DNA from: Candidatus Aminicenantales bacterium
GTDB lineage: Bacteria > Acidobacteriota > Aminicenantia > Aminicenantales > Saccharicenantaceae
Direction of reading: 5' to 3'
Assembly (NCBI GenBank): GCA_049512315.1
Contig: JBEKXF010000024.1
Coordinates: forward strand, 1-54,681
Length of the DNA: 54,681 nt
The position numbers and the translations under genes are program-made. This document shows, piece by piece, positions 8,159 to 45,501 of this stretch (within the stretch, counting starts at the first letter, position 1; each line of letters starts with the position of its first letter). Under the pieces are notes generated by a model that worked only from the letters and a program-made list of their open reading frames with translations, did no database searches and was not told the DNA's origin.

Positions 8159-8220
8159 TGTCAAGATTTCTATCGTGTTGGGGGCTTAAAGGCCCTTAAA
8201 ACTGCTGAAATTCACTTAAA
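8159..8220 (+). repeat. arm-type att repeat (TGTCAAGATT...CGTGTTG...GCTnAAAGG)
   Basis: Similar to 28606-28665 and 45299-45360. Confidence 0.6.
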
Positions 8221-8276
8221 GCCGGCCCGGGTCCCGAAGCTCGCATTTCGCGGGGGCTCTCGGGGAAAAAACGAGA

Positions 8277-8332
8277 GGTGCCTGAGAGAATTCGAACCTC
8301 CGACCTTTGGATCCGGAGTCCAACGCTCTACC
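8277..8332 (-). pseudogene. tRNA-Arg(CCG) 3' fragment (att-like core)
   Basis: Reverse complement TAGAGCG TTGGA CTCCGGA TCCAA AGGTC GGAGG TTCGAAT TCTCT CAGGCAC; lacks the 5' acceptor strand. Confidence 0.8.
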
Positions 8333-8516
8333 CTCCTGGATATATGGGGAAAACCCAATTTCCAGGAGGAAATGTCTTGTTTTCCTTTACGCACCTTTAG
8401 TCAGAATTAAGCGCGTTTAAGCATTTTTTGTGACATTTTTGTGACAAATGAGCCCAAAATCGGCTCAACAGGGGCTGCGAATATTCCAGCAACCTCTTCA
8501 GAATCAGTGAGTTAAA

Positions 8517-8564
8517 TGAAGTGCCCCTGGCCTGACTCGAACAGGCGACACATGGATTAGGAAT
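8517..8564 (-). repeat. att site: exact 48-bp duplicate of the tRNA-Arg(CCT) 3' half
   Basis: Identical to 45422-45469. Confidence 0.95.
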
Positions 8565-8650
8565 GCACAACGCCGATTTTCTGGAAAGCCTCTAATTATT
8601 TATTTATGAATATTTTACATGGTCTATCAGGGGGACCGTTACCGTAGGGG

Positions 8651-8759
8651 TGTCAACTTTATGTCGTGTTGGATCCGGGATTCCTTGCGTTATTCGTTGG
8701 AAACTAAAAAGCCAATAAACTCACTTTTTGGCTGGATCATTTTTCAGGGCTGAGGTCCA
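8651..8759 (+). repeat. ~110-bp unit: arm-type repeat TGTCAAC..TGTCGTGTTG plus type-B IS3-like terminus
   Basis: Homologous to 28822-28930 and the reverse complement of 40277-40380. Confidence 0.75.
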
Positions 8760-8761
8760 TG

Positions 8762-8808
8762 CTTGAAAATCTCACTTCAGAGGTGGTACATTTAGCGGGG
8801 GCGGGTCA
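8762..8808 (+). promoter_or_regulatory. IS3-like terminus type A carrying an outward-facing promoter (TTGAAA-18-TACATT, extended TG)
   Basis: CTTGAAAATCTCACTTCAGAGGTGGTACATTTAGCGGGGGCGGGTCA upstream of ORF 8898. Confidence 0.55.
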
Positions 8809-8897
8809 AGCTCAATAGCATATGACTGACAATAAAGAAACGGCATGGCCTTTTCTGTTGATCTAGCTACATAAATATCCGTAAGAAGGAGAGCGTT

Positions 8898-11156
8898 ATG
8901 GAACATTTGCAGACTGTTCAAAAGGTATTCTCAGACAAACTGCTCGAAGTTCCGAATTATCAACGTGGCTATGCATGGGAAGAACCTCAATGGATCGATA
9001 TGATCGAAGACCTAGAAGTATTGGCGGAAAGTCAAACTCATTATACTGGCACTGTGGTTTTGAACAAATCAGACGAAAACGTCATGAATGATGAAGGGCA
9101 TATACTGGAAAAGTATAACATAGTCGACGGACAGCAAAGACTCGTTACGATATCTATTCTGCTCCATTGTATATCCGAGAATCTCAAGCACTATGCCAAT
9201 ACTCTTAAATTGGGTGAAGGAATACGAAAAAGCTATCTAGTGTTTAAAGATAAATTCAGCCAGGAAAAGCTCAGGCTTACACTCAATGAAGACTGCAACA
9301 CATTTTTTATGAGAAATATCATTTCTACCATTCCCGCAGTTGAAGGACCTGTAATTAAAGCTCACGAAAATCTGGACGGGGCTCTCACCTTTTACAAGAA
9401 GTATCTCAAAAAGAAAAAGGATGTCTCGCCTGATCACTATGAAAACTGGCTTGTCGAGCTTTACAGAAAGATAATCGAATCTCTGGAATTCACAGTTTAT
9501 GAGGTAAAGCAATCAGCAGAGGTAGGGGTAATTTTTGAAACTATGAATAACCGCGGCAAATCCCTTTCCGATCTGGATAGGGTCAAGAATTATCTACTTT
9601 ATCTAGCGAGCAAATTACCTGAAATCGCGCGCCAGGAATTGGGCGATAAAATCAACAACGAAGTGGGAAAACTATATAGGAAGCTCATGGACATAGGCGG
9701 TTCTTCATCTGCAACCGAAGACCAACTTCTGAGAATGGCCTGGCTTATGGCATATAACCCGGCTTCAAAATATTGGCAAGGATATACGACAATAAAACAA
9801 CACATCAACCTCAGGAAATATCCTTCCACAACAAGAGATGTAGAGCTGATCAAGGATTTGAATACTTACATCGATATCCTATGCGACTGCAGCTCCGCCT
9901 ATAGAGATATTTTGGTTCCCCGTGCAGAGGATTCTTTCAAGAATCTAGGAGCTATTCCGGAGGCGCGTGAAAAATTAGTGCGCAAAGCGGAAAAGATTTT
10001 GCGAGTTGGAAATACAGCCTCTTTTATGCCAATTATTATGGCCGCCAGAATCAAATATCCAAATGAATATGAGTTACTCAGTCAGCTCCTAGATATTTGT
10101 GAGAAGTACGCGTTCAGAATTTTCAGACTTCAAAACTTCAGATCCAATACCGGGCAATCGAGCCTTTTCATATTGGGATTCAAACTCTTCAAAAAAGAAA
10201 TAGATTTGAAAAAGGCGATTCAAGCAATGAACTCTCTTTTACTCAACTATTCTTCGGATAAAACTTATAGAGAAGAATTCGAGTTGGGAAGGAAAAACTG
10301 GTATCAGTTCTACGGCCTGAAGTATTTTCTTTATGAATACGAAGAATCGATTTCGCACGGGAAGGGAGTTATCTATCCTTGGGATCGACTGGCAAGAAAG
10401 GACAAACAAGAGACCGTGGAACACATTCTGCCACAGGTGCCCTCTCGGGAATATTGGCAATCGAGATGGAATCAAGATCAGATCAACAAATACCTACATG
10501 ATATTGGAAATCTCGTATTGACCCTCGATAATAGTATCTATCAAAACAAATCCTTTTACGATAAGAAAGGAACCCCGGGAGTAAAGGATTGCTACATGAA
10601 TTCGATTTTATTTCAAGAGCGAGAAATTGGCGCTTTTTCAGAATGGACTGAAAAAGAATTGTTGGAAAGAAGAGAGAAAATAGTTAGGTGGGCCATAGAT
10701 CGCTGGTATATATATCCGGCTTTAGGAGGTGATCTTTATCTCGATAACGAGAACGACGAAGAAACAGATGACGATCAAAATGATCCAGATGACAATCCCA
10801 TAAGCGCTCCGACCTCGATTGAATCCAAAGAATGGCCTCAAGACCTTCTTTCAACATATCTCGATAGACTCTGGGAACGAAAAAAACGGACTTATAATTT
10901 TCTCAGAGTCCTTGCTTCCGACGAAAGTGCTTTAGAATTCAATGAGGCCATTCGGAGAATTAACGACATCAGCGAAATTAAGATAAAAGGCAGGAGTATG
11001 GCTGGGATATCTTCAGGTCTTACCAAGCAGGCCAAGAAAAGAGGGTTCGACAGGCTTGTGATCGAGTTCAAAGAAGATGTGTGGAAATACAAACTGAACG
11101 AAAAGTATAGGGACATCATCAAAAAACATGTTGAAAGTCGAACTACCCCCGGTTAA
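8898..11156 (+). CDS. DUF262/DUF1524 GmrSD-like type IV restriction protein with C-terminal extension
   Basis: VPNYQRGYAW, IVDGQQRL, FETMNNRG, TVEHILPQ, IGNLVL. Confidence 0.9.
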   Translation: MEHLQTVQKVFSDKLLEVPNYQRGYAWEEPQWIDMIEDLEVLAESQTHYTGTVVLNKSDENVMNDEGHILEKYNIVDGQQRLVTISILLHCISENLKHYANTLKLGEGIRKSYLVFKDKFSQEKLRLTLNEDCNTFFMRNIISTIPAVEGPVIKAHENLDGALTFYKKYLKKKKDVSPDHYENWLVELYRKIIESLEFTVYEVKQSAEVGVIFETMNNRGKSLSDLDRVKNYLLYLASKLPEIARQELGDKINNEVGKLYRKLMDIGGSSSATEDQLLRMAWLMAYNPASKYWQGYTTIKQHINLRKYPSTTRDVELIKDLNTYIDILCDCSSAYRDILVPRAEDSFKNLGAIPEAREKLVRKAEKILRVGNTASFMPIIMAARIKYPNEYELLSQLLDICEKYAFRIFRLQNFRSNTGQSSLFILGFKLFKKEIDLKKAIQAMNSLLLNYSSDKTYREEFELGRKNWYQFYGLKYFLYEYEESISHGKGVIYPWDRLARKDKQETVEHILPQVPSREYWQSRWNQDQINKYLHDIGNLVLTLDNSIYQNKSFYDKKGTPGVKDCYMNSILFQEREIGAFSEWTEKELLERREKIVRWAIDRWYIYPALGGDLYLDNENDEETDDDQNDPDDNPISAPTSIESKEWPQDLLSTYLDRLWERKKRTYNFLRVLASDESALEFNEAIRRINDISEIKIKGRSMAGISSGLTKQAKKRGFDRLVIEFKEDVWKYKLNEKYRDIIKKHVESRTTPG

Positions 11157-17569: not shown

Positions 17570-17634
17570 GGTGCCTGAGAGGATTCGAACCTCCAGCCGT
17601 TGGATCCGGAATTAGCTGACCTATCCAATGAGCT
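17570..17634 (-). pseudogene. degenerate tRNA-Arg(CCG)-derived sequence (att-like core)
   Basis: Reverse complement AGCTCATTGGATAG...TTCCGGATCCAACGGCTGGAGGTTCGAATCCTCTCAGGCACC; anticodon stem unpaired. Confidence 0.7.
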
Positions 17635-18125
17635 GGATAATACCAGTCACAAATTGGCCACAACCCTCCCCTGCTGAGCTCACTCCTCCCCCACTTATCG
17701 TTGATTATAAAGATGATTAGCGAGCAGAGATAGTCTCAGAGTGCTGGACGGGGAATCCAAAACATATCTGCCCCCTGGACTAGGAAAGCGCCTCCAGGAT
17801 TTTTGGTCTTATGGACTATCCCTGCAGTCGGAAAACTCAATTTTTGGCCAGATCAGTATCGGGGTGAGCCCCCGAGTGAGGGAGGGAGTGAAGTGGGCGC
17901 GGGTCGGCCGGGGTTGTGAACTTTTGGTGAATTTCACGGTCTTTATTAGGTGGATAAGGTAAATTCTGGCCAAAGCCTATTATCAAGCTACAAGGCTGGT
18001 ATGAGGCGGGAGGACCCCGGTATCGTCTCTGGGCCCCAGGACGGAGAAAGACGCTCGTTAGCGGATATTCGCCTCATAGGAAGAGACGGATGAATTAGGT
18101 TTATTTCTCATTTTAAGGGGGGAAA

Positions 18126-19106
18126 ATGTCAGATATGTTCTTGGCATGGTGGAACCTGGAGAACCTCTTCGATGTGGAGGGCTCCGCGAACAGGCCGGCG
18201 TGGCTGCAAGAGACGCTGAAGAATGAGGTAAAAGGCTGGACACAGGCGATTCTAGACAAGAAGATCAGCCAGCTTTCGTCGATTATCCGCGGCTTAAACA
18301 ACAACAAGGGGCCGGACATCCTCGGTGTTTGCGAGGTCGAAAACAAGCCTGTGGTCGACCTGCTCGCCCAAGGCCTGCAACCGCTCGGCAGAAATTACGC
18401 TGTCGAGCATCACGACACGTCCGACCAGCGTGGGATCGACGTCGCTTTTATCTACGATGTGGATCTGTTCAAGGCCGAGGCACAATTCTTCTACATCGTA
18501 TCAAAGAGGACCGGGACCCGAGATCTTTTCCAAGTGAATTTTAGAGATAAGGCCACAAACAAACTCTTGGTACTCATCGGAAACCACTGGCCTTCTAGAT
18601 CCGGAGGAGAGCTGGATAGCGAGCCCTTCAGGATTCAGGCCGGAGAGACCCTGGGCTACTGGGTGGAGAGGATCCCGGATAAGTCTGGAGAGCCGAACGT
18701 CGGGATCGTCTTGATGGGCGACTTTAACGATGAACCGTTCAACCGGTCCGTTATGAACCATGCTCTCGGCTCGAATTCTGAAACGATAATTTTGAAGGCG
18801 AAGAATCCATATTCTCTTAATCTCATGTGGCCCTTTCTTTCAAAGGGCCTCGGAACTTTTTATTACGATTCAACGCCGAATGTCTTGGATCAGTTCATGG
18901 TCTCGAAGTCGATTCTGAAAGTGGAAGAAGAATGCGGCTTCATGGTCAAGAAGAATCCGGACGGGAGCTATAAAGTTGCCATCGAAATGAATCCGGCGAT
19001 GATGAAGAACGGAAAGCCCGTCCCATTTGGAAGGCCCAACAAGAATTTGAATCAGGCAGGGCACAGCGACCATTTCCCGATCTCGATGGAGCTGGTTGAG
19101 ATTTGA
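18126..19106 (+). CDS. endonuclease/exonuclease/phosphatase family protein
   Basis: WNLENLFD, DILGVCEVEN, RGIDVA, NHWPSR, MGDFND, SDHFP. Confidence 0.9.
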   Translation: MSDMFLAWWNLENLFDVEGSANRPAWLQETLKNEVKGWTQAILDKKISQLSSIIRGLNNNKGPDILGVCEVENKPVVDLLAQGLQPLGRNYAVEHHDTSDQRGIDVAFIYDVDLFKAEAQFFYIVSKRTGTRDLFQVNFRDKATNKLLVLIGNHWPSRSGGELDSEPFRIQAGETLGYWVERIPDKSGEPNVGIVLMGDFNDEPFNRSVMNHALGSNSETIILKAKNPYSLNLMWPFLSKGLGTFYYDSTPNVLDQFMVSKSILKVEEECGFMVKKNPDGSYKVAIEMNPAMMKNGKPVPFGRPNKNLNQAGHSDHFPISMELVEI

Positions 19107-19145
19107 AAACGGCGCCTGGAAATAGCCAAAAGGAGGAGGAAGGCC

Positions 19146-19466
19146 GTGAGTATTTTTGATATTTTGGGGAAAGAATGCGCAATTGAGGAAATTACTAGGT
19201 TCATTCAAAGCAGAGACCGTGATCCGGTATGGAATCAATGGTACGTTGGCATTACTGACAACCCGAGTTGAAGGCTCTTCGAGGAACATAACGCCTCAAG
19301 AAATGATAGTATCGTTGTTACCGTTGAATCTGAGGCAGTCGCCCGGAGCGTTGAAAAGTTCTTTATTGAACTCAATGGAACGGAAGGGAATCCAGGAGGA
19401 GGGGAGAACCCTCGTTTTGTTTACGCGTTCAAAATGATGCCGCAGACGCGCCCTTCTCCAGGATGA
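19146..19466 (+). pseudogene. small GIY-YIG-like protein interrupted by in-frame TGA (19269-19271)
   Basis: AGGAGG RBS, GTG start; WYVGITDNPS*RLFEEHN...ARSVEKFF...GNPGGG...FVYAFK; not in the ORF track. Confidence 0.65.
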
Positions 19467-19522
19467 GGTTTGAGCCGGGCCAGACCTGGATTTGCGGGAG
19501 AATCTAGGGAAGCAGTCTGACT

Positions 19523-19951: not shown

Positions 19952-20141
19952 GTTCTCTCATGCAGGATGGACATATGGGCGATGTTGGTTCCGTCGTTGA
20001 TAACCTCTATCGCCAGTTTATGCTGGCGACCTCTTTTTCGTCTTCGGCTCAGCAGAAAAGGAAGAGGATAAGAAACTACTCCAGAGTTATTTTTCCGACG
20101 ACCTAAGAATTGTAATCCCGGGGCCTCAGGATTTCAGAAGG

Positions 20142-20474: not shown

Positions 20475-20495
20475 CCTTAGGCTTAAGGAGAGTAC

Positions 20496-30449: not shown

Positions 30450-30453
30450 CTTT

Positions 30454-34306: not shown

Positions 34307-34507
34307 ATGCAAATGAACAAGGAGGTGGCCAAGATCTCGAAAAAGAATTTCGAGTCTCTCTGCCCTTTCTGCAAATCACGGGCCATCTATCAAATTGGGG
34401 CGCATAGAGCAAACCCTCAGGGCTCTATTTGGTATTCCGATTATCCCGAGGCCGAAATCGGCGAGTGGAAATGTGCTGTATGCTTTGGGTCCTTTATCCT
34501 GTTCTGA
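34307..34507 (+). CDS. small putative zinc-binding protein
   Basis: CPFC...CAVC. Confidence 0.45.
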   Translation: MQMNKEVAKISKKNFESLCPFCKSRAIYQIGAHRANPQGSIWYSDYPEAEIGEWKCAVCFGSFILF

Positions 34508-34589
34508 GCGCGCGCTATAGGATTTCTCTGTCATATGGTAAAAACTGACCGAAGCAAAGAAGATAATTGAGGATGGGAGGATTGTTCCC

Positions 34590-34868
34590 ATGACAAAACG
34601 TCCAACGAAAACGCAGAAACTGGACGAAGCTTTCTCTCACAGTATGATGACAATGGAGGAAAAGCAGGAGCTTAACGAGCGCATGGATCAAGGACTGGTA
34701 AAGTTTGGGCTTTTCATAATAACAGGTCACCTTCAGAAGTTCGTAGAAAACCGTTCGCTCCAAGTGGTGTTGAAGGAAAATGACCTAGTGGTCTCCTGGG
34801 ACGACGAGGGGAAGAAGGTGGTCGTGGTGACCAGCCCGCGACGACCAGCAAAATCTAAGAAGGGATGA
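34590..34868 (+). CDS. hypothetical protein
   Basis: GGGAGG RBS; 92 aa. Confidence 0.55.
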   Translation: MTKRPTKTQKLDEAFSHSMMTMEEKQELNERMDQGLVKFGLFIITGHLQKFVENRSLQVVLKENDLVVSWDDEGKKVVVVTSPRRPAKSKKG

Positions 34869-34897
34869 GAAAGCCGCCCTAGAACGGCCAGCAGAGA

Positions 34898-35044
34898 TGA
34901 CCTGCCCCCCGTCACCGTACCACCCCTGAAGTGAGATTTTCAACTTTTGGACTTGCCCCCTGGTTTGGTCCATTTTTTAGGGATAAGCTCCATTATTGGA
35001 GAGACCTCATCCCTGAAAAATGGCCCAGACATAATGTGAGCTTT
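34898..35044. repeat. cluster of IS3-like termini: type A (34898-34944), minimal fused element (34948-34992), type B (35003-35044)
   Basis: Direct alignment to the other copies. Confidence 0.75.
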
Positions 35045-35116
35045 CTGGAGGTCTGACGCCAAGATTGTCCGCGCACCGGATCCTTGGTCCAGTGCGCGAA
35101 TTCCTTCAGGCGCAGC

Positions 35117-36202
35117 TTAATGGCTTAGTTTTGAGGGAGTTATAGGGATAGGCTCAAGGCAGGCGTCTGAAGGCCTGTCAACTATTTGTCGTGTTGAATC
35201 CAAAATCTCCCCCAGCCGATTGACCGCCAGTCGCATATTCTCAGGCGTGGGATGAGCGTATCTCATCGTCATCTGGATCGAAGAATGACCTAGGATCTTC
35301 GAAACTGTGACTAGGTCAACCCCTGCCTCAACCATCTTTGTTGCGGCCGTATGCCGAAGGTCATGAAGTCGGACGCCACTGATCTCGGCAGCTTTCAGAG
35401 CCGCCGCAAATAAGCGCGTGACCCCCTTGATGTGCGTTTCGGTCTTAGGATTAAAGAAAACGTAGTCAGATCGCCGCTGAAGGCCCTTCAGCGCTTCGAA
35501 CACAGCTGTGTTCATCGGCAGTTTGCGGGATTTGCCGCTTTTCGAATCCCCGATGAGGATGAAGCCTCGAACAAAATCGACGTCCTGCCACCTAAGGCTC
35601 AAAATCTCAGATTTCCTCATCCCTGTGTTCAGGGCAATGATTAGGATCGGCCGGAGCTCAGGACCCGCGCACTCGATGAGACGACTGGCCTCAGCTGGGT
35701 TCAAGATCCGCTCCCGGGTGTTATTTTCTTTGAGCTTTTTAACTTTTGCGGCAGGATTGATCCCGAGCCTACCCCAATCGACTGCCTTATTGAAGAGCGT
35801 TTTAAGACACGCGAGCTCGCGATTGCACGACGCCGGCGAGACTTCAGCCTTTCTGTTGGCCTTGTAACGCTCGATCTTCTCAGCACCGATGGCGCGCAGC
35901 ATATCGCCTTTGAAGAAAGCCTTCAGGTTATTCAATGAGAATTCATCTCGTGTCCAGGACCGTTTGTTCGGCTTTGAATAGAGCTCGAGAAAATCGTCCG
36001 CGAACTTCTCAAAGGACACGTCTTGCACATCGGGCTTCTTGAATCCCCTGGCCACGTCCAGAAGCTCAGCCTTTATTTTGACCAGGGTATTCCGCGCTTG
36101 GTCCTTTGTATACCCGCCGAACTGGCGGACCCTTTTGCCCCTGAACGTGAAATCGAGATTCCACTTCCCGTCGGTGAGCTTAAGATTTCGTTCTTTTTTC
36201 AT
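35117..36202 (-). CDS. tyrosine recombinase / phage-type integrase
   Basis: LNTGMRKSE, SKSGK, HDLRHT, LGHSSIQMTMRYAH (R-K-H-R-H-Y intact). Confidence 0.95.
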   Translation of the reverse strand: MKKERNLKLTDGKWNLDFTFRGKRVRQFGGYTKDQARNTLVKIKAELLDVARGFKKPDVQDVSFEKFADDFLELYSKPNKRSWTRDEFSLNNLKAFFKGDMLRAIGAEKIERYKANRKAEVSPASCNRELACLKTLFNKAVDWGRLGINPAAKVKKLKENNTRERILNPAEASRLIECAGPELRPILIIALNTGMRKSEILSLRWQDVDFVRGFILIGDSKSGKSRKLPMNTAVFEALKGLQRRSDYVFFNPKTETHIKGVTRLFAAALKAAEISGVRLHDLRHTAATKMVEAGVDLVTVSKILGHSSIQMTMRYAHPTPENMRLAVNRLGEILDSTRQIVDRPSDACLEPIPITPSKLSH

Positions 36203-36378
36203 TTGCCCCGCCCTACGAGCGGCTTAACGAATCGCTGAAACTCGGACCGCCGGACCCGCCAGAGACGGCCGCCAGGCTTGAGGGCCCGGAGCTTGCCCGC
36301 CCGAATCCAGCGGACGACCGTCTGCCTCGAGACTTTGACAAGGGAGGAGATGTCTTTAACCGTCAGGAAATCGCTCAT
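36199..36378 (-). CDS. excisionase-like HTH protein
   Basis: FLTVKDIS..VKVSRQTVVRWIRAGKLRA; coupled to the integrase. Confidence 0.85.
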   Translation of the reverse strand: MSDFLTVKDISSLVKVSRQTVVRWIRAGKLRALKPGGRLWRVRRSEFQRFVKPLVGRGK

Positions 36379-36400
36379 TTTCTCCTCTACATAAGCAATG

Positions 36401-36453
36401 TCATATCGTATCATATCTAATCAAATCGTATCATTTTTAAAAAGGCTTGTCAA
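36401..36453 (-). promoter_or_regulatory. sigma70-like promoter (TTGACA-17-TACGAT) overlapped by 10-bp tandem repeats
   Basis: TCATATCGTA TCATATCTAA TCAAATCGTA TCAT; TGTCAA at 36448-36453. Confidence 0.7.
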
Positions 36454-36496
36454 GCCCCTTTTTTTGGCGCAGGAATCCGTGCTATCCTTCCTCGAG

Positions 36497-36679
36497 ATGA
36501 AACGGGAATACCTGAATAAAAAGGACCTTCAAGCCTACTTGCGAATTGGCCCCGCAACGGTGAATCGGCTGATGAAAGATGGGCTGCCGTTTATCAAGCC
36601 GAGGGGGAAAGTTCTATTCCGCCGGGACCTTGTAGACACCTGGCTCGAGGCCCGTATTGTCCGGGCGAAGAAGTCTTAG
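36497..36679 (+). CDS. excisionase-like HTH protein (divergent)
   Basis: YLNKKDLQAYLRIGPATVNRLMKDGLPF..RGKVLFRR. Confidence 0.8.
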   Translation: MKREYLNKKDLQAYLRIGPATVNRLMKDGLPFIKPRGKVLFRRDLVDTWLEARIVRAKKS

Positions 36680-36715
36680 ATCCCGCCATTTAAACCTCGC
36701 ATCCAGGGATGACCT

Positions 36716-36760
36716 CTGGACTATGTATCCAAAGGTCGAAGGTTCTAATCCTCTCAGGCA
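36716..36760 (+). pseudogene. degenerate tRNA-Arg(CCG)-like 3' fragment beside the integrase module
   Basis: CTGGACTATGTATCCAAAGGTCGAAGGTTCTAATCCTCTCAGGCA, compared with 8277-8332. Confidence 0.6.
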
Positions 36761-36822
36761 GGGCACGTTTGACTTCCCGCCTCCACGGCGTTATCCTTAG
36801 GCCGACATAGAAAAGGGGGCCA

Positions 36823-39198
36823 GTGGTGGCCATCAAATGCCCAACCTGCCATTCCGACAATCCTGATACCCTGAAATTCTGCGGGGAGTGCGGAACCCAG
36901 CTCCCTCCTCCCCAGGACCGTCCTCCGGTCATGACAGAAACGCTCCAAACACCCATCCGAGAGCTCACTACGGGCTCCACCTTCGCAGGCCGTTACCAGG
37001 TCATCGAGGAGCTGGGCAAAGGGGGGATGGGGAACATATATAAGGTCATTGATAAAGAAATAAACGCCAAAATAGCTTTGAAGCTAATTAGACCGGATAT
37101 TGCCGCTGATGAAAGCACTATCGCCCGGTTCCGGAGAGAACTCAAAGTTGCCCGAGATATTTCCCACAAGAATATCTGCCGGATGTACGATCTTGGCAAG
37201 GAAGCAGGCGCCTATTATATAACGATGGAATATGTGCCCGGCGAGGATCTAAAGAGCATGATCCGTATGTCGGGGCAACTGAGCGCGGGATTCGTCATCA
37301 ATATAGGAAAGCAGATTTGCGAAGGGCTGGCGGAAGCTCACAGGTTGGGCGTTGTCCACCGCGATTTGAAGCCCGGCAACATCATCATTGACAAGGAAGG
37401 CAATGTTCGAATCATGGATTTCGGCATCGCTCGCTCACTCAAGGCCAAAGCGATCACGGGTGAAGGGATGATCATCGGGACACCTGAGTATATGTCACCG
37501 GAGCAGGTCGAAGGAAAAGAGGCCGACCAACGCTCCGACATTTATTCTCTGGGAGTGATCCTGTATGAAATGGCCACGGGCCGCATTCCTTTTGAGGGAG
37601 ATACTCCTCTAAGCATAGCCGTAAAGCAAAAGACAGAAACTCCGCCAAGTCCGAAGCGGATCAACAACCAAATACCTGAAGATCTGAGCCGGATCATATT
37701 GAAATGCATGGAAAAGGATAGAGGGAAAAGGTATCAAAGTGTCCAGCAACTTCTAATTGAGCTTAATAGGGCTAAAATAGAAAAGCGCGGGCTGGATAAG
37801 GTCGGCGAGGCCGGGACTGCGCCGTCCATCGCCGTCTTGCCCTTCGCTGATCTGAGCCCGGAGAAAGATCAGGACTATTTTTGTGATGGAATAGCCGAAG
37901 AGATCATCAATTCTTTAACAAAAATCGAAAAGTTGAAAGTGGCTTCAGGGTCTTCGGCTTTTCAATTCAAAGGAAAAGGACACGACATTCATGAGATCGG
38001 AGAAAAATTAAAAGTTCAGACCGTGCTCGAAGGGAGCGTACGGAAAGCGGGAAGCAGGCTTCGGATATCGGCTCAGCTGGTTAATGTCGCGGATGGTTAC
38101 CATATTTGGTCCGAGAAATACGACTGTGAAATGAAGGACATTTTTGTCATCCAGGATGAAATAGCTCTGACAATTGCCGACAAACTGAAAGTCAGGCTCT
38201 TGAGCGAAGAAAGAGAGGGACTCGTTAAGAGGCACACGGAAAATATTGAAGCTTATAATCTCTATTTAAAAGGCCGCTATTTCTGGAGCAAGCGGACCCA
38301 AAAGAGCTTTAGAAGAGCGATTGAATTCTTTGAACAGGCCATTGGCGAAGACCCAAGTTTTGGACTCGCCTATTCTGGCTTGGCTGATACGTACAATTTG
38401 CTTGGGTTTTATAGTGTCCTTCCCGGCAAAGAGGCTTTTCCCAAGGCCAAGCAAGCTGCGCTGAAGGCACTTGAGATAGACTCTTCAATCGCTGAAGCAT
38501 ATTCGTCCCTGGCTTTCGCCCAGCTATACTATGATTGGGACTGGGAGGGTGCTCATAAGAATTTCAAGAGTGCTATTGAGTATGGCCCAGGATATGCGAC
38601 AGCTCACCATTGGTATGCCGAATATTTGGTCTTGGTAGGCCAAATGGAGGAAGCCATTGGGGAGGGAAAACAAGCTTTGGAGTTTGATCCCTTCTCGCTG
38701 GTCATAAATACACTGTTGGGATGGCCGTTTCATTATTCAGGTCGATATGATCAGGCGATAGAACGATATCAAAGGACGCTGGAGCTGGACCCGAACTTTA
38801 TGACTCCACATTTCTTCCTGGGGTTGACCTTCGTGGAAAAAGCCATGTATAAGGAAGCCCTAGCGGAATTTAATAAAGCCAAAGTTCTTTTTGGAGATAG
38901 CGCTCTCATGGATGCGGCTATCGGCCATGCCTACGCCAGGTGGGGAAAGACAGATGAAGTCAAGAAAATTCTCGCTGAGCTCGAACAGATATCAAAACAA
39001 AGGCATGTCCCGTTCTATTATTTAGCCGCCATCTATGCGGATATCGGCGATCGAGATCAGGCCTTTCGTTGGCTGGAAAAATGTCTCGAAGAAAGGGATA
39101 TGTGGTTGGCGTTTCTCAGGGTGGACCCCATATGGAGCGACCTGCGACCAGATCCTCGGTTCAGTGAGCTATTAAATAAAATGGGATTGATCAATTGA
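36823..39198 (+). CDS. Ser/Thr protein kinase with zinc ribbon, TolB-like domain and TPRs
   Basis: CPTC..CGEC; LGKGGMG, HRDLKPGN, DFG, GTPEYMSPE; SIAVLPF; TPRs. Confidence 0.95.
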   Translation: MVAIKCPTCHSDNPDTLKFCGECGTQLPPPQDRPPVMTETLQTPIRELTTGSTFAGRYQVIEELGKGGMGNIYKVIDKEINAKIALKLIRPDIAADESTIARFRRELKVARDISHKNICRMYDLGKEAGAYYITMEYVPGEDLKSMIRMSGQLSAGFVINIGKQICEGLAEAHRLGVVHRDLKPGNIIIDKEGNVRIMDFGIARSLKAKAITGEGMIIGTPEYMSPEQVEGKEADQRSDIYSLGVILYEMATGRIPFEGDTPLSIAVKQKTETPPSPKRINNQIPEDLSRIILKCMEKDRGKRYQSVQQLLIELNRAKIEKRGLDKVGEAGTAPSIAVLPFADLSPEKDQDYFCDGIAEEIINSLTKIEKLKVASGSSAFQFKGKGHDIHEIGEKLKVQTVLEGSVRKAGSRLRISAQLVNVADGYHIWSEKYDCEMKDIFVIQDEIALTIADKLKVRLLSEEREGLVKRHTENIEAYNLYLKGRYFWSKRTQKSFRRAIEFFEQAIGEDPSFGLAYSGLADTYNLLGFYSVLPGKEAFPKAKQAALKALEIDSSIAEAYSSLAFAQLYYDWDWEGAHKNFKSAIEYGPGYATAHHWYAEYLVLVGQMEEAIGEGKQALEFDPFSLVINTLLGWPFHYSGRYDQAIERYQRTLELDPNFMTPHFFLGLTFVEKAMYKEALAEFNKAKVLFGDSALMDAAIGHAYARWGKTDEVKKILAELEQISKQRHVPFYYLAAIYADIGDRDQAFRWLEKCLEERDMWLAFLRVDPIWSDLRPDPRFSELLNKMGLIN

Positions 39199-39241
39199 TC
39201 TCAATGCTTCAGGTTCTGGATAGGTTTTCTGGTTTGAGATC

Positions 39242-40213
39242 ATGAAAAGTCGGGGGGAAAATATTTTGGGCTCCGTCCTTGAGGCTATTGGCAGCACTCC
39301 TGTCGTCAGTCTTTCACGCATCACCAAGAACGAGGCGGGAACGATCTTGGCCAAGCTGGAATATCTCAATCCCGGGTTTTCCAAGAAGGACCGGCCTGCT
39401 CTCCAAATTATCGAGGACGCTGAGGCAGAAGGCTTGCTCAAGTCTGGTCAACCTATCGTGGAATTGACGAGCGGCAACATGGGCATCGGATTAGCCATCG
39501 CCTGCTCCATCAAGGGCTACAAGTTTATTGCGGTCATGTCCAAGGGAAATTCCCCCGAGAGGGCTCGTATGATGGCGGCCCTTGGCGCAGAAGTCGTATT
39601 GGTCGACCAACAGCCTGGTTCCCTGCCGGGACAGGTTTCCGGGGGGGACTTGCAACTCGTTGAGCTAGAGACTCAGCGCATTACCAGAGAGAAAAAGGCT
39701 TTCCGGGCGGATCAGTTCAAATTATGGGGAAATTTTCGCTCACACTACTTGCATACGGGACCTGAATTTCTCGAACAATCCAATCATAAGATTGATGCTT
39801 TTTGTGACTTTGTGGGGTCTGGAGGATCTTTTGCCGGCTGCGCTCGTTCGTTTAAAGAGGATAATCCTTCAATTCGGTGCTACGTGGTTGAGCCGGAAGG
39901 GGCGGCCGCTTTGGCGGGCGAACAGGTAACCTACCCTCAGCATCGGATTCAAGGCGGCGGATATTCGATGCTATCGCTGACATTCCTTAAGCCCGAGCAT
40001 ATCGACGGCTATCTCAAAGTTACAGACGAGGAAGCGACGGCCGCGGCGAGGAAATTGGCCAGGGAAGAAGGCATCTTTGCCGGCTTTTCTTCCGGGGCCA
40101 ACCTTGCTGCAGCCATAAAGCTTCTGCGCGGGCCGTGTAAGGGAAAGACCATCGCGATCCTTATCAATGATTCGGGGTTAAAGTATCTAAGCACTGATTT
40201 ATGGCCTTTATAA
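39242..40213 (+). CDS. cysteine synthase family PLP-dependent enzyme
   Basis: KLEYLNPGFSKKDR, TSGNMG, GSGGS, GFSSGAN, DSGLKYLS. Confidence 0.9.
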   Translation: MKSRGENILGSVLEAIGSTPVVSLSRITKNEAGTILAKLEYLNPGFSKKDRPALQIIEDAEAEGLLKSGQPIVELTSGNMGIGLAIACSIKGYKFIAVMSKGNSPERARMMAALGAEVVLVDQQPGSLPGQVSGGDLQLVELETQRITREKKAFRADQFKLWGNFRSHYLHTGPEFLEQSNHKIDAFCDFVGSGGSFAGCARSFKEDNPSIRCYVVEPEGAAALAGEQVTYPQHRIQGGGYSMLSLTFLKPEHIDGYLKVTDEEATAAARKLAREEGIFAGFSSGANLAAAIKLLRGPCKGKTIAILINDSGLKYLSTDLWPL

Positions 40214-40276
40214 TTCATCAGAACCGACTCACCCACCCCTGTTATTCACAGTTTTTGGGTGAGGCTCAGAGGCGGC

Positions 40277-40380
40277 CCCCATCTCATGAGAATGTTCTAG
40301 ACATAATGCGAGTCTTTTAGTTTTTTAGCTTCCAACGAAAAGCGCAAGGAATCTCGGGCCAAGACGACAAGAAATCGACA
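40277..40380 (-). repeat. inverted copy of the arm repeat plus type-B terminus unit
   Basis: Reverse complement TGTCGATTTCTTGTCGTCTTGGCCCGAGATTCCTTGCGCTTTTCGTTGGAAGCTAAAAAACTAAAAGACTCGCATTATGTCTAG. Confidence 0.7.
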
Positions 40381-40681
40381 CCGCCACAGAATCTATCATC
40401 AAGCTCAATCCTCTAACACCTTTAAAACTAAGCCTTTAAAAGTAGCCCTATGAGACCCGCCTTCTGGACTTCATGTCCAGTGGTCAGGACGTCCTTTTGG
40501 ACTGATGGGGGTAGGGTCGAGGGTGGATATCTCGGGCGGCCGGTGCCTATTGGACTATGCGCTCTGGCACGCCAGATCGATCTGTATCCTATCCCCGGGT
40601 CGTGCTGTTTTAATGTAGAGGGGGCGGATTACAGACTGTTCACCGGCCCCCGAGTCGAGGGCCATGAAGGAACGTTTGCGG

Positions 40682-41239
40682 TCATTCATGCCAGGTTTCC
40701 CGAATAGACCGGAGTTCTTCCAGGGCCCGCCCGTAGAGCGGGTAGGCCCGAATTAGAAGCCGGTTCGCCTTTCTCGGGTGTCCGTGTTTCCGTAGCTCTT
40801 TGGCCCGGTCCTCTAAAGTCCCCGCCCGCCGTAGGAGCTCATACGGGCTTCTATGCCTTTGGCTTACTTCGTAGGCTAGCCTATGACAATGACGGCAGGC
40901 GTAATATCCGCCGCTCAGGTAGAGGGCCATAACTCGCCGGCAACAATGCCGACACCGGAAATAAAGCCTACGCCCGCCGTAATAGCAGGGAAAGGCCTCT
41001 ATCCTGTGCTCATAATCTACGGGCTTTTTGTCCAGTAGGTAGTCAAACTTTATGACCCCGCCCCATTCGTCCAAGCGGACCTCGAGGTTAAGGCTCCCGG
41101 TTTCTCGCCCGCCGCTTGAAAACGTAAGCCGCCCTTGCTTATAGCCCAAGTGTAGATAGCCCCAGGTTTTTAAATCGTGTATGGTAAGCCGGGACGTTTC
41201 TTCTACCATATCCCGGCCCCGCCCTGGATAGCGTCCCAT
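40682..41239 (-). CDS. mobile-element-associated zinc-finger protein
   Basis: PCYYGGRRLYFRCRHC...YACRHCHRLAY. Confidence 0.7.
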   Translation of the reverse strand: MGRYPGRGRDMVEETSRLTIHDLKTWGYLHLGYKQGRLTFSSGGRETGSLNLEVRLDEWGGVIKFDYLLDKKPVDYEHRIEAFPCYYGGRRLYFRCRHCCRRVMALYLSGGYYACRHCHRLAYEVSQRHRSPYELLRRAGTLEDRAKELRKHGHPRKANRLLIRAYPLYGRALEELRSIRETWHE

Positions 41240-41985
41240 TTTTAGCGGCTCACTCTCTTAGGGTTCCCGTAATACATAGGTGTTATGCCAGAATAAATGC
41301 CGGCGTTTCTCGGCTATACTTGCGAGCTAAGCCCGGACCTTAGAACGGGTAGCCCGTCCCCGTAGTCGATATCCGGGCCTCGATCGTGTGTTTCACATCA
41401 TGCATCCTGACAATGGTCATTTAAATCCCCGTTATTGAAGTAATCCGGGGTCCGGGTGGCGTGTCCCCCTGACCAGTACGCGACTCGCGCTTGGCCTCTG
41501 CCTCATTTTTTTGTTCATGTCTTCAGCCTTATGATCATGTCCCGAAATCCGGGCGCCCGGCCGGCCGCGAGCTCCTTTACGATCTCGCCCAGGGCCCAAG
41601 CCAGAAGCCGGTGCCGGCGCGAGCAAAAGCGCTGAGGCTTGCCGCTTTTTCGTGCTTGGAACCGCTCTAAACAGACGGGGCAAACGTTAACGTTCATCTG
41701 CGGGCCGATCGTTTCCCGGACTTCTCGGGTAGAGGGCCTTATCCCCGTGGTCAGGGCCGAATGGCTCCTTTTTGCGCGTCCTGCGCGGCCGTAGCGGCCT
41801 TCCCTCAAGTCCTGCGGCGCCCTCACAGGTTCATCCCTTTTCCAGCCGGCAACACGTTCATATTGCCTTCAGCCCCGCCTCCAGGTTCCTGCAGGCCCGG
41901 GGACGACCAAAAAGTTGACGGGCGGGCCGACCTTCGGAGAGGATCGACGGACAGGCGATGCAAAGGACCGGCAAATCTGGCTTTT

Positions 41986-42549
41986 TCATTTCCTGCCGTC
42001 TTTCGCCAGTAGCCGCGCCTCGTACTCAGCCGCCTCGCACCTATGCTTCTCAATCTCCTTGTCAAGCGCCGCTTCTTCGTTCGCGCCTAGTTTCCGGCGG
42101 ATTTCCGGCGATGACGCGGCGGACCTCTCTGTATCATCTAGGGTTTGATTTTCTCTTCCCATTAACTGGGAATCTTGCGGAGATGATAGAGATGGCTCCG
42201 GTACGCCTTTCTGCATAAGCTCCCGTTTTCTTCTGGGGTCGATCTGATAGTCCTTCCACGAGTTGACATAAAGAATTCCATTTTCCAAGCGCGTAAGTTT
42301 GCCGAAAGCGACACATCTTTCGATCGTGCGCGAAATAACGTCTGCGGGAACCCGCAGCATCCCGGCGAGATATTCAACAGGGTATGGCGTTGTCGGGTTC
42401 GCGCGGATGAATCCGTCGTCGGCGGCGGCAAGGCACAGAAAGTCAATGAAGACGCCTCGTTCTGCAGGGTCGAGTTCCCAGCGGGTCGAACCCATGAGCC
42501 ATTTATTGCGCCACAGCGGCAACCAATCGTAGATTTTTCCGCGTCTCAT
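41986..42549 (-). CDS. phage replication-organizer-like protein (N-terminal domain)
   Basis: WLPLW...ERGVFIDFLCLAA...YLAGML...VNSWKDYQ. Confidence 0.65.
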   Translation of the reverse strand: MRRGKIYDWLPLWRNKWLMGSTRWELDPAERGVFIDFLCLAAADDGFIRANPTTPYPVEYLAGMLRVPADVISRTIERCVAFGKLTRLENGILYVNSWKDYQIDPRRKRELMQKGVPEPSLSSPQDSQLMGRENQTLDDTERSAASSPEIRRKLGANEEAALDKEIEKHRCEAAEYEARLLAKDGRK

Positions 42550-42737
42550 GGCCTGTTCGCCTGGTTCTGCTGTTCAAGCCGCCGCTCAAGCTCGCGTAAA
42601 TCGACCCGGACAGCCCGCCCGATATGAACGGCCCCGATCTCGCCGCGAGCGATCATCTTTCTGACGCTCATCGGATGAAGCGAAAGCATTGCTGCTGTGT
42701 CGCCGACTGTGATCCAACGCCGGGTGGGGACGTTCAC
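42546..42737 (-). CDS. excisionase/AlpA-like HTH protein
   Basis: WITVGDTAAMLSLHPMSVRKMIARGEIGAVHIGRAVRV. Confidence 0.8.
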   Translation of the reverse strand: MNVPTRRWITVGDTAAMLSLHPMSVRKMIARGEIGAVHIGRAVRVDLRELERRLEQQNQANRP

Positions 42738-42994
42738 GATTCGTCTCCGGTTCGGTCGCCGAATAGGACTTCCAGGGGGAAGCCGAAGGCGCCGGCGATC
42801 TTCGCCCTGGTCCTCTTCCGTAGCACGTCCGTCCCCGACTCGGCTTTGAATACGGACGAAAGGGAAACCTCGGCGGCGAGGGCTAGCGTACGTTGGCTTA
42901 ACCCTCTACTTTTACGGATGACCCGCAGGATGCATGGGCCTTGACCCCTCCCTGATTTTCTGTCATCCTTAGCCGGGAGTTTGTCGGACCCCAT
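42734..42994 (-). CDS. XRE-family HTH regulator
   Basis: LRVIRKSRGLSQRTLA...VFKAESG...KIAGAF; AGGAGG RBS. Confidence 0.8.
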   Translation of the reverse strand: MGSDKLPAKDDRKSGRGQGPCILRVIRKSRGLSQRTLALAAEVSLSSVFKAESGTDVLRKRTRAKIAGAFGFPLEVLFGDRTGDES

Positions 42995-43061
42995 CTGACT
43001 TACCTCCTGGCCCCATCATGGGTTCGTTTGCCGTGTCAGCGGCTTCGAACCCGGGGCCTTT

Positions 43062-43748
43062 TTATTTTCTCGTAGCGAATGGGCTCAGTTTGCCTGTCAT
43101 CAATTCGATAGAGCTAACGATCCCCATGAGGTCGATAATTAACGTGCTCCCAAAATTAACCGCTGCACGATCCCTCGCTGGCCCGTGGTCCAGCCCTAGC
43201 GAATCAACCGCGCTCGATAGGGTTTTGACCCAGGCTTCCGGCTTTTTGTGTTCTCCGGGGGTAAGAGAAATGTGTATCCCAGCGGCTGTTCCGACGGGGG
43301 TCATGTCTATATAGGGCCCTCTATTGATGAGAAGAACGCAGCCCTCACGGAGATATTTGTCCCGGTGAGCAGCTATGTTTGCCAAGATTGAGGCTTCCTT
43401 AAAGGGCTTATAGAGAAGGTGATCTCCAGCGAGCTCCATTGCGATGGGCTGTCCCAAGATCTCCTTGATCGCTGCCAAGTTAACTCCGAATAATAACAGT
43501 TCTTTAATTACCGCCATCTCTAACAGGTTCTCGGGCGAGTATAGGTTTTTGCCATGTGCCTTGCCCCTAATGGCGGGTTCAAACAATCCCCAGGTTCGAG
43601 ACCAAAGGTAAGCTTCTTCGGGCTTTATTCCAAGGATGCTTTTGACGTCCCCGGATTTGAAGAGCTTTCTATCGTCTATTGCCACTGTTAATAGAAAATA
43701 GCATCTTAAACTGGCTTTGTCAACCTTTTTTTCAAATAGCCCCACCAT
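43062..43748 (-). CDS. MerR-like HTH regulator (true start probably near 43685)
   Basis: FKSGDVKSILGI...YLW...LYSPENLLEMAVIKELL.FGV.L..IK. Confidence 0.6.
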   Translation of the reverse strand: MVGLFEKKVDKASLRCYFLLTVAIDDRKLFKSGDVKSILGIKPEEAYLWSRTWGLFEPAIRGKAHGKNLYSPENLLEMAVIKELLLFGVNLAAIKEILGQPIAMELAGDHLLYKPFKEASILANIAAHRDKYLREGCVLLINRGPYIDMTPVGTAAGIHISLTPGEHKKPEAWVKTLSSAVDSLGLDHGPARDRAAVNFGSTLIIDLMGIVSSIELMTGKLSPFATRK

Positions 43749-44000
43749 CCGGCCAGGGTCCGCCCGAGATCGTCGTCCTGACGCGATCCTGGGCGGCCGG
43801 CTTCACCTCGTCACGATTGTCGACATCAAGGCCTTTAGTCCACGGTACGCTTCTGCATAGCGAGTCCAGGGGGCGAACCCTCAGGCCATTGGCTTTATGT
43901 CCGGACAGGGGGTAATTCTCCTATTGCATCCCCAGCAGGTCAGCAGTAGAATCAGGTCAGCAACGGGCAGCTGAATAAGCTTTGAGGTATAATACGGACG

Positions 44001-44444
44001 ATGAGAGCTCAAGAAATATTTACGATCGGATATGAGGGTCGTGAAATAGACGATTTTATTTCGCATCTAAAGTCCCTAAAAATTACGCGCCTTATTGATG
44101 TAAGAGAGCTTCCGTTATCCAGGAAAAGAGGTTTTTCGAAGTCCCAACTAAAGAGAAGAATGGAATCAGAAAATATTGAATATGTCCATATCAGGTCACT
44201 TGGAAGTCCTTCAAAGATCCGTCATCGACTCAGGGAAGACCATAATTACGATCAATTTTTCTCCGCTTTCCATAATCATTTAGCTGTAAACACAGAGGCG
44301 ATTGCTAGAGCTCATGGATACATCCGAGATGGAACAAATTGTTTAATGTGTTATGAACGTTCTTCGGATAGGTGCCATCGCTCAGCCGTCGCTCAGAAGA
44401 TAAAAGAATATGATGGGAATGGATTGAAAATAGTTCACATTTGA
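44001..44444 (+). CDS. DUF488 family protein
   Basis: IFTIGYEG, LIDVRELPLSRKRGFSK, CLMCYE...CHRS. Confidence 0.9.
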   Translation: MRAQEIFTIGYEGREIDDFISHLKSLKITRLIDVRELPLSRKRGFSKSQLKRRMESENIEYVHIRSLGSPSKIRHRLREDHNYDQFFSAFHNHLAVNTEAIARAHGYIRDGTNCLMCYERSSDRCHRSAVAQKIKEYDGNGLKIVHI

Positions 44445-45229
44445 AGGCCCAAGACTTCATAGCGAAGAAAGTCCTAATTACAGTAAAAGCCTATCCATAC
44501 CCAAGTATCAGCTATGGAGAGACGGTTTGCTGTGCGGGCGTGGACCTCGAAGATTTTAAATGGATCCGTCTCTATCCGATACCTTTCAGAGATCTGGAAG
44601 ATGATAAGAAATTTCGTAAATATAGCATTATCGAAGCCGATTGTGCCAAGTCACCCGGTGATTTAAGACCTGAGAGCTATCGTATAAGATCAGCTTCTAT
44701 CAGAATCCTAGATCACATTGATACCCGAAAGGGATGGGACAAAAGAAAGTCTATTGTGCTGAATCTTCCCGTTAAATCGATGTGTCAAGTAATCGAAGAC
44801 GAAAAAAATGCTAAAGCTTCATTGGGTTTGATAAAGCCTGTTAATATCGCTTTTCATTGTGAAAAGAAGCCGAAATCTGACGCCGGGAAGAGAATGAAAG
44901 CATATGCCCAAAAAAGCCTTTTTGGAAGATTAAAACAACCAATAGAAGAAATCCCATACCAATTTTATTATCACTTCAGATGCGCTTCAGAATTAGCTTG
45001 CCCTTCCCACGATCTATCAATAACCGATTGGGAAATATGTCAATCATTTCGTCGATGGAAATATCGGTATCGTGACGAGCAGGAATTATTGAGAAAGATC
45101 GAAGATAAATGGATGGACATGGTCGATGATACTAAGAAGGATTCATATTTCTATGTTGGAAACCTACATAGGCTTCAAAACATATTCACGGTTCTTGGCA
45201 CATTCTATCCGCCATTAATGAACCCATAG
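44441..45229 (+). CDS. conserved hypothetical partner of DUF488 (possible OB-fold)
   Basis: TTGA overlap; ITVKAYP..S..YGETVCCAG...WIRLYPIPFR...DWE...FYVGN. Confidence 0.75.
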   Translation: MKAQDFIAKKVLITVKAYPYPSISYGETVCCAGVDLEDFKWIRLYPIPFRDLEDDKKFRKYSIIEADCAKSPGDLRPESYRIRSASIRILDHIDTRKGWDKRKSIVLNLPVKSMCQVIEDEKNAKASLGLIKPVNIAFHCEKKPKSDAGKRMKAYAQKSLFGRLKQPIEEIPYQFYYHFRCASELACPSHDLSITDWEICQSFRRWKYRYRDEQELLRKIEDKWMDMVDDTKKDSYFYVGNLHRLQNIFTVLGTFYPPLMNP

Positions 45230-45298
45230 ATTTGGCATCACTTCCCGCCACCGAGAAGCCCCCCCGGATTAAACAAACGGGCGGAGATCAGAACTGAC

Positions 45299-45360
45299 TG
45301 TCAAGATTCGTGACGTGTTGGAGGCTAAAAAGGGCTTAAATCGGCTTAAACGGACTTAAA
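45299..45360 (+). repeat. arm-type att repeat next to the tRNA
   Basis: TGTCAAGATTCGTGACGTGTTGGAGGCTAAAAAGGGCTTAAATCGGCTTAAACGGACTTA. Confidence 0.75.
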
Positions 45361-45426
45361 TCCGATATCCCGTCGATGATCAGGTAAGTTATTGATCTTC
45401 AAGGCTTATATGGGGAGAATTTGAAG

Positions 45427-45501
45427 TGCCCCTGGCCTGACTCGAACAGGCGACACATGGATTAGGAATCCATTGCTCTATCCATACTGAGCTACAGGGG
45501 C
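45427..45501 (-). tRNA. tRNA-Arg(CCT)
   Basis: Full cloverleaf GCCCCTG TA GCTC..GAGC A ATGGA TTCCTAA TCCAT GTGTC GCCTG TTCGAGT CAGGC CAGGGGC A; CCA not encoded. Confidence 0.97.

Follow-up and report, generated by a model that had tools for sequence, protein, structure and literature searches.

Seven fragments of tRNA genes, belonging to four tRNA types and mostly accompanied by short arm-like repeats, are scattered through a contig of a Candidatus Aminicenantales bacterium (GenBank assembly GCA_049512315.1, contig JBEKXF010000024.1), and the question raised by this locus is how attachment (att) cores of such different kinds came to lie together. A preliminary description, made from the sequence alone, took them for a platform on which integrase-less cassettes are shuffled in trans, functionally like an integron array. 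Our analysis favors another answer, to which we assign a probability of about 0.68: tRNA-Arg(CCT) is the site of an accretion island, whose elements lie nested or in tandem and have been eroded by deletions and by the ends of IS3-family insertion sequences. The window, by which we mean the whole 54,681-nucleotide stretch, is all of contig C24 of G000, a 3.55-Mb metagenome-assembled genome (MAG) of 77 contigs that is 96.6% complete and 1.3% contaminated; its RecO is up to 95% identical to Ca. Aminicenantales records, and the sequencing runs that contain window sequence are peat metagenomes. C numbers denote contigs of this source genome, and other G numbers the genomes of relatives. Blocks of the window were sought by DNA search in 246 genomes, taking the best two candidates per genome, which is not exhaustive, and the relatives' loci were chosen for holding a core, an arm, an integrase, or shared cargo, a sample neither independent nor blind.

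Fragments were called by BLAST against the genome's own tRNAs, which recovered all seven of those described earlier (Table 1); the one near 28220 is indeed present, but it is a 5' half, which the earlier account had not stated. Five cores lie on the minus strand and two on the plus strand, and several arm families accompany them. We use M9 for TGTCAA-N9-CGTGTTG, M8 for its N8 form, T for TTGTGAC-N4-TTGTGAC, and D1, D2, and D3 for further repeats of the window. Both repeat families first proposed are real, in that M9 has three exact matches in the window (0.54 expected at two mismatches) and T has four (0.14 expected); M8 is found at 8651, 28822, and 35176. Their proximity to cores held for six of the seven cores, which have a repeat at 36–124 bp, but not throughout: the core at 36717 has no arm within 1.5 kb, the M8 copy at 35176 sits within the integrase coding sequence, and the copy at 40359 on the reverse complement is a degenerate M8 end without an adjoining core, 77% identical over 93 bp to 8649-8741. 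Genome-wide, the zone within 200 bp of a tRNA or fragment makes up 1.3% of the sequence, yet holds all 11 T repeats; it also holds five of the eight exact M9 copies and five of the eight M8 copies (two further M8 copies lie within integrase genes). A third repeat, TGAGCAC-N-TGAGCAC, has 10 of its 12 copies there. The repeats are associated with att sites rather than strewn about regardless of them; the fragments themselves are genome-wide. An Rfam search near att sites gave tRNA matches only. That core sites lie in the stem, with the overlap in the loop, is the established lambda-type model. As far as sequence can tell, the M9/M8 and T/T arm pairs on both sides of cores fit a lambda-type attP layout, and a 7-bp overlap at the anticodon loop is indicated by fragments that retain loop and stem and by shared homology that starts at the loop. 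The observations support reading the window sites as remnants of lambda-type att sites with arms; in PMC8371274 the anticodon stem likewise provides the core-binding sites and the loop the 7-bp overlap.

The island spans 8517-45472 (36.9 kb) and is bounded by a 51-nt direct repeat, 8517-8567 being 98% identical to tRNA-Arg(CCT), with M8 inside its left end and M9 inside its right end. Chromosomal backbone lies to the right of 45.5 kb, and to the left of tRNA-Arg(CCT) the GC content mostly drops from ~0.62 to 0.40–0.60. An arm pair consisting of M9 and an M8-bearing integrase gene also bounds intact elements of 9–10 kb in two relatives, G006 (at tRNA-SeC) and G053 (at Arg-ACG cores), whose integrases are 65% and 60% identical, respectively, to that of the window; both relatives carry terS-like genes. 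Several inner junctions have counterparts elsewhere. The spacer between Arg-CCG and Arg-CCT (8330-8517) consists of two halves, each matching one of two arm families, with the T repeat as their overlap, and the arms of the Leu-CAA junction match attL of Leu elements in G023 and G004 as well as the upstream arm in G020. On C46, attL of the real tRNA-Thr matches 28710-28929 at 97% identity, and 28487-28758 is 81% identical to C66, where the order Leu-M9-Thr recurs. The D2 and D3 repeats were tried as att arms and rejected; they are IS3 ends, because they adjoin IS3-type transposase genes elsewhere (rve_3/HTH_Tnp_1 genes on C34, C47, and C36). D1, a 99-nt repeat at 824-922, 1336-1434, and 3167-3265, follows IS3-type D3 ends, recurs on many island contigs, and probably represents what is left of the 3' part of a transposase gene. 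Positions 45385-45397 (minus strand), which lie between M9 and the end of the tRNA, nearly match the consensus for integration host factor, and similar sequences were noted by eye at other cores.

That cargo can be bounded by att sites while lacking an integrase, as the preliminary description supposed, is borne out by a 10.6-kb element at about 17605-28228, which has no integrase inside and whose attL and attR match. When its ends are joined computationally, the predicted circle junction aligns with a G184 sequence at 78.5% identity, the 312 aligned columns spanning the join, and the reconstructed empty site aligns with tRNA-Arg(CCG) at 85% identity in 75 columns. The real tRNA-Arg(CCG) is located on C11, and therefore either a foreign core was the landing site or the 17.6–28.2 kb block was moved whole. 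Overall, the comparisons support the view that cores of foreign tRNAs may have served as landing sites. Within the element, 22603-26863 encodes a radical SAM/SPASM protein, a DUF3892 protein, and unannotated low-GC open reading frames (ORFs).

The 35.1–45.4 kb segment resembles a satellite of the kind known as phage-inducible chromosomal islands (PICIs) or tycheposons, with integrase, excisionase-like, regulator, and replication genes in less than 15 kb; no terS was identified among the window ORFs scanned, and the two ends carry different cores. The core on the integrase side is not derived from a tRNA, and the ends are therefore mismatched; its outer arm is common to C66. The integrase is, as first described, the only one in the window; it groups with tRNA-island integrases and is positioned mid-island, and M8 lies in the 3' end of five related integrase genes. 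G000 has 13 tyrosine-recombinase matches, comprising two XerC/D-like, three short, and eight of island type. Within the segment, 42364-42667 matches the intact SeC element of G006 at 70% identity. The PDC-M19 pair was located in four genomes, directly inside the att sites of Asp-GTC, Leu-CAA, and Arg-CCT, and the kinase-PALP gene pair is found without cores in G215.

How one island could receive cores of several tRNAs is suggested by a stem that many of them share. Fragments of at least 25 nt exist for 9 of the 13 G000 tRNAs with a GA-N7-TC stem and for 3 of the 31 others (Fisher p = 1.6e-4), two contig-end artefacts being scored as none and the Arg-ACG case being weak. Rare-codon preference is no explanation of this bias, since among C-wobble tRNAs (Met and Trp left out) fragments were found for six of six with the stem and one of seven without. 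From the order as a whole, 36 distinct integrases were compiled, 26 of them with an adjacent tRNA match, and in 22 of these 26 the tRNA has the GA-N7-TC stem; Ala-GGC is among these targets and has no fragment in G000. The M8 integrase clade of the window occurs at SeC, at Arg-ACG, near Ser-TGA, and at non-tRNA sites, the fork being moderately supported (93/97). Arms and cores are also mixed: one single-linkage cluster of upstream arms joins 11 Arg-CCT and 9 Arg-CCG cores, and another joins eight Thr and one Arg-CCT. A Thr-family arm on C27 keeps 80% identity as far as the loop, from which point the sequence is an Arg-CCT half; the two loops differ by one base. Many Arg-CCG halves begin at nt 29–34 with unshared upstream DNA, which would fit secondary-site insertion. 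A supposed chimera in G009, with an Arg-CCT-like 5' stem before an Arg-CCG loop, was dropped as an attP feature of the arm-B family.

It could be argued that RecA- or IS3-mediated exchange between repeats (IS ends, paralogous kinase genes, and arm blocks) alone mixed the cores, with no integrase acting across tRNAs. Homology for such passive scrambling is ample (35 copies of D2 and 61 of D3 as IS3 ends, plus 36 kinase matches), identity to the real Thr attL stops exactly at the IS3 end, and the window spacer is fused via the T repeat. However, the GA-N7-TC bias, the joint at the C27 loop, and the Arg-CCG halves starting at nt 29–34 are left unexplained, and we judged exchange of this kind quite improbable as the whole cause; it probably contributes alongside accretion.

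Neighboring cores at most 400 bp apart are of different tRNA types in 18 of 18 cases (8/8 in G000 and 10/10 at loci from 25 other genomes), whereas at 0.4–15 kb, 47 pairs are the same and 35 different (13 and 23 in G000; 34 and 12 elsewhere). This suggests that matched mini-units would have been lost by excision and mismatched ones trapped. Some mixed units are common to different genera, such as one from Thr to Arg-CCG at 75% identity over 151 bp.

Whether cargo is exchanged as cassettes is a separate matter, on which the ends of shared DNA bear. On a selected, integron-like platform, att-bounded cassettes lacking an integrase and belonging to several tRNA types would regularly be cut out and rearranged in trans. 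In its favor, 135 island-near segments shared between genomes end at cores in both at 19 of 270 ends, against 0.75 expected. A 1,144-bp module with one 283-aa ORF and Arg-CCT cores at both ends is 92% identical between G009 and C27 of G000, which belong to different genera (the neighboring chromosomal gene is 72% identical), a 677-bp piece lies between Arg-CCG-type cores in both G024 and G000, and the fused M8-IS3 end at 8651 recurs on Arg-CCT and Thr cores (C28 and C46) and in G002:C6. Yet in 10 of the 18 listed core-end cases the shared DNA is chromosomal backbone that stops at a complete tRNA, and the 1,144-bp module is the only one of the 135 segments to run core to core. Cargo boundaries away from cores in relatives were among the outcomes that the preliminary description had named as refuting it, and four of the five window cargo blocks traced in relatives have no end core or could not be placed; neither the CHAT/sigma block, nor a 731-aa ORF, nor the kinase-PALP pair has cores at its ends there, and the 29117-34877 cargo, 84–88% identical in G003, G051, and G006, has no core bounds in G003 or G051. 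Two modules adjoin without a core in G009 but are separated in G000 by an insert and two cores; this pair, on C28 in G000, was once taken for shuffling and was dropped because the event is not core-to-core.

Nor are such fragments confined to one locus. G000 has 68 tRNA fragments on 25 contigs, two contig-end artefacts having been dropped, with 31 assigned to Arg-CCG (a few probably from a related Arg tRNA) and 11 to Arg-CCT. In G009, 11 Arg-CCT fragments with the same orientation are spread over 73 kb, whereas the window has a single Arg-CCT fragment, the others being foreign; G018 and G024 hold mixed arrays. An island-type integrase was not found in these three relatives (90–93% complete), which have only three, two, and two PF00589 matches, respectively. 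The window cores point both ways, and no circle junction was seen over 27000-46900 in the assembled contigs of four of the seven listed runs, a weak test because contigs drop rare forms. Contig depth is flat over 36.9–45.4 kb, and none of the joints listed was taken as excision, since they have short sides, mostly under 40 letters, and those at att sites match other copies, e.g., on C66. All told, a selected platform appears unlikely.

A mosaic of this kind might also arise in the computer, from contigs mis-joined at tRNA repeats or from the pooled islands of several strains. The MAG is in many contigs, no listed contig piece spans 28.5–28.8 kb, and G000 is an outlier, since an Arg-CCG T-arm pattern, itself derived from G000, matches 25 times there and no more than nine times in any of 175 other genomes. 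Set against this are the low contamination, the recurrence of the Leu-M9-Thr order on C66, and mixed clusters in genomes of three to six contigs; single contigs also cover 27000-28472, 35047-36879, and 36864-45451 without differences, although their run may be the source of the MAG. We regard the likelihood of an artefact as very nearly negligible.

Under the accretion reading, small satellite-like elements with related lambda-type integrases would recombine at the 7-nt anticodon loop, using the stem as core-binding sites, and the shared GA-N7-TC stem would allow related integrases and arms to serve several tRNAs in either orientation, the distribution being observed and the binding presumed. 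Each insertion would leave a tRNA half and arms, and such dispensable scars could take later insertions in or beside them. Scars of foreign tRNAs may have arrived by occasional mismatched-loop recombination, by fusion at arm repeats, or by IS3- or homology-driven transfer, and integrase genes would have been lost later, in many cases as far as an IS3 end. A unit whose two cores match would be open to excision by a visiting or resident integrase, and one whose cores differ would be trapped, giving tight mixed clusters; most cargo would have been captured or rearranged regardless of cores. In published anticodon-loop systems, related integrases switch targets and mismatched secondary sites act as traps (PMC8371274, PMC4383910). 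Mobilization in trans, recombination across loops, and arm binding are what we infer here from comparison of sequences.

Several points weigh against this reading. No circle was seen, nor any recombination or binding, and foreign cores may first have arrived by any of several routes. The N-terminal arm-binding domain of the integrase matches PF12167 at E = 0.095 and 13.2 bits, below the Pfam cut-off of 22. Four GA-N7-TC tRNAs have no fragment and three tRNAs with other stems do, and the stem type of the relatives' integrase targets was inferred from the G000 tRNA of the same type. Finally, for the contrast between close and distant pairs, G000 by itself gives p = 0.08, and the remaining loci, which are not independent, give p = 2e-5. 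A bolder extension holds that one integrase clade reads GA-N7-TC on about nine tRNAs, that trapped mixed-core mini-units are adaptors making every island a landing pad for all specificities, and that small att-bounded cassettes lacking an integrase circulate between tRNA loci and genera via transient satellites, as a distributed multi-address network without a resident integrase; we consider it doubtful, and offer it tentatively.

Table 1. Features of the window in order of position. att sites and gene functions are as predicted; percentages beside cores are identities to the corresponding tRNA of the genome.
Positions	Strand	Feature	Identity or relatives
8159-8516		M9 arm, Arg-CCG core (8278-8330), and cargo-less spacer fused via T repeat at 8428	
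8278-8330	-	Core, Arg-CCG nt 21-73	98%
8517-8808		attR of island: Arg-CCT core and M8 at 8651, followed by IS3 ends that replace the integrase	
8521-8564	-	Core, Arg-CCT nt 33-76	100%
8898-11156	+	Cargo: GmrSD-type nuclease between IS3 ends	
17571-17610	-	Core, Arg-CCG nt 34-73	92.5%
17571-17760	-	attR of 10.6-kb element: arm B (T repeat at 17646) and Arg-CCG 3' half	
28066-28261	-	attL of 10.6-kb element: Arg-CCG 5' half and arm A (T repeat at 28080)	88% to G006:C8
28221-28258	-	Core, Arg-CCG nt 2-39, 5' half	84%
28310-28585	-	Leu-CAA junction: core 28443-28509, both arms (T repeat at 28314)	
28443-28509	-	Core, Leu-CAA nt 20-86	95.5%
28606-28929	+	Thr-CGT junction: M9 arm, core 28710-28756, M8 arm, IS3 end	
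28710-28756	+	Core, Thr-CGT nt 28-74	100%
29117-34877		Cargo: ECF sigma factor, CHAT-TPR protein, and neighbors	
34898-35048		Stack of IS3-family terminal repeats (D3, D2-like, inverted D2)	
35071-35097		Symmetric non-tRNA core by the integrase: 7 bp flanked by 10-bp inverted repeats with inner ends GGA..TCC	
35117-36202	-	Tyrosine integrase, 361 aa; catalytic motifs intact by eye; M8 at 35176 in 3' end	
36497-36679	+	Excisionase-like HTH_17 protein, divergent from integrase	
36717-36760	+	Core, Arg-CCG nt 29-72, decayed	89%
36717-40213	+	Decayed Arg-CCG core, then Ser/Thr kinase-TPR and PALP genes, inserted in satellite-like element	
40274-40385	-	Coreless M8 arm fused to IS3 end, inverted	Paralogue C28:23042-23188
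41986-43748	-	Replisome-organizer-like protein, HTH_3 repressor, MerR-type HTH protein	
44001-45229	+	PDC-M19A/B (DUF488) candidate defense pair	
45299-45320	+	M9 arm, inner arm of attL	Same arm after SeC, Arg-ACG, Arg-CCT, Arg-CCG, and Thr cores in relatives
45426-45501	-	tRNA-Arg(CCT), the only full tRNA; attL of island	

Other observations concern the cargo and the recombinases. About 16 of 34 island kinase-TPR matches start with the same promoter block (GTTTGACTTCC...), the window copy of which is at 36760-36830, with paralogues on C2, C6, C14, C26, C34, C43, C50, C55, and C73; four copies directly follow a clear Arg-CCG half, several follow short remnants, and one (G009) follows an Arg-CCT half. 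Kinase cassettes as att-bounded units were rejected, as a clear Arg-CCG half lies upstream in only four of the 34 scored matches, but traffic through tRNA islands may drive expansion of the kinase family. An M8-clade integrase gene at C75:110-1237, with no tRNA nearby, ends 8 nt before an ORF that, from its first residues, may be rtcB. Three tyrosine recombinases of ~200 aa, 88–93% alike and without an N-terminal domain (C2:15798, C5:146814, and C50:11672), could be candidates for a resident recombinase; one tyrosine-recombinase match in G009 is of similar length.

Many Arg-CCT halves have a ~28-nt hairpin-like insertion between anticodon stem and variable loop (C27:3176, C28:1262/10721/12365/32988, C34:11276, eight copies in the G009 array, and G002:C6), which no full tRNA seen possesses; if the gene were restored from such an attP, a long variable arm would result. 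Reverse-type islands at C17:4086-49588 and on G006:C8 duplicate the 5' half of tRNA-SeC or tRNA-Arg(CCG), the integrase lying upstream of the tRNA. On the chromosomal side of the window, 51111-54412 (minus strand) holds a gatD/gatE-like pair (an asparaginase with GatD_N and a GatB/GatE-domain protein), a pair usually regarded as archaeal.

If the accretion reading is right, the stem rule and the 18 mixed close pairs are a natural record of integrases switching targets and of trapping at mismatched sites, and an integrase family whose target is specified by an exchangeable 7-bp loop flanked by constant GGA/TCC ends could be a useful retargetable recombinase. The GA-N7-TC rule, mixed-type core clusters, and tRNA islands of Aminicenantes were not found in the literature searched, whose coverage mostly left out subscription papers. 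Integrons are built of IntI, attI, and attC. The island resembles them in being a row of accessory and defense genes separated by relics of recombination sites; unlike them, it has double-stranded core-plus-arm sites, mixed orientation, and multi-gene cargo with its own promoters. A dedicated IntI residing next to the array was not found, although no search with an IntI profile was made; the sites belong to several families and point both ways, and shared segments mostly do not end at them.

tRNA fragments are treated in earlier work (PMC4383910, PMC11476347, and bioRxiv 10.1101/2022.07.05.498093). In Islander (PMC4383910), the crossover is centered on the anticodon in 2083 of 3919 islands, and displaced 3' and rare 5' fragments occur, but filters on integrase, orientation, and configuration reject units of the kind that most of ours are, and only four tandems of at least three are listed. 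Islands of this sort, which hold defense, kinase, and metabolic cargo, are largely invisible to tools that require one integrase and one cognate fragment. The ssrA islands of Dehalococcoides (PMC3146451) are similar in having more than 12 direct repeats at one RNA gene and 15 islands without integration modules, proposed to be cis-mobilizable elements (CIMEs); they differ in their serine integrase, T-loop crossover, single target, and co-oriented repeats, whereas a tyrosine integrase, the anticodon loop, and several targets are involved here. Tycheposon islands of Prochlorococcus (bioRxiv 10.1101/2020.12.28.424599) are likewise tRNA-linked aggregates with rare transient integrase elements and scattered partial tRNAs, some PICI-like with terS, but their integrases are described as specific to the island's tRNA, whereas our cores are mixed, share a stem, and lie among abundant IS3 ends. 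The closest parallel in mode is the tandem accretion of CIMEs at ICESt1/ICESt3 (PMC5704250), where decayed elements that have lost their integration genes but keep attL and attR are stacked with newer elements at one target, with chimeric junctions. The ORFs scanned here revealed no genes for conjugation. The 10.6-kb element has matched attL and attR without an integrase, and the 11 Arg-CCT junctions of G009 are co-oriented, both as in CIME stacks; the ICESt1/ICESt3 stacks are described with one target gene each, whereas the present locus has cores of four tRNAs in both orientations. On the reading favored here, its mode is the known one of tandem accretion with CIMEs, unusually mixed, and not an orderly integron-like cassette system.

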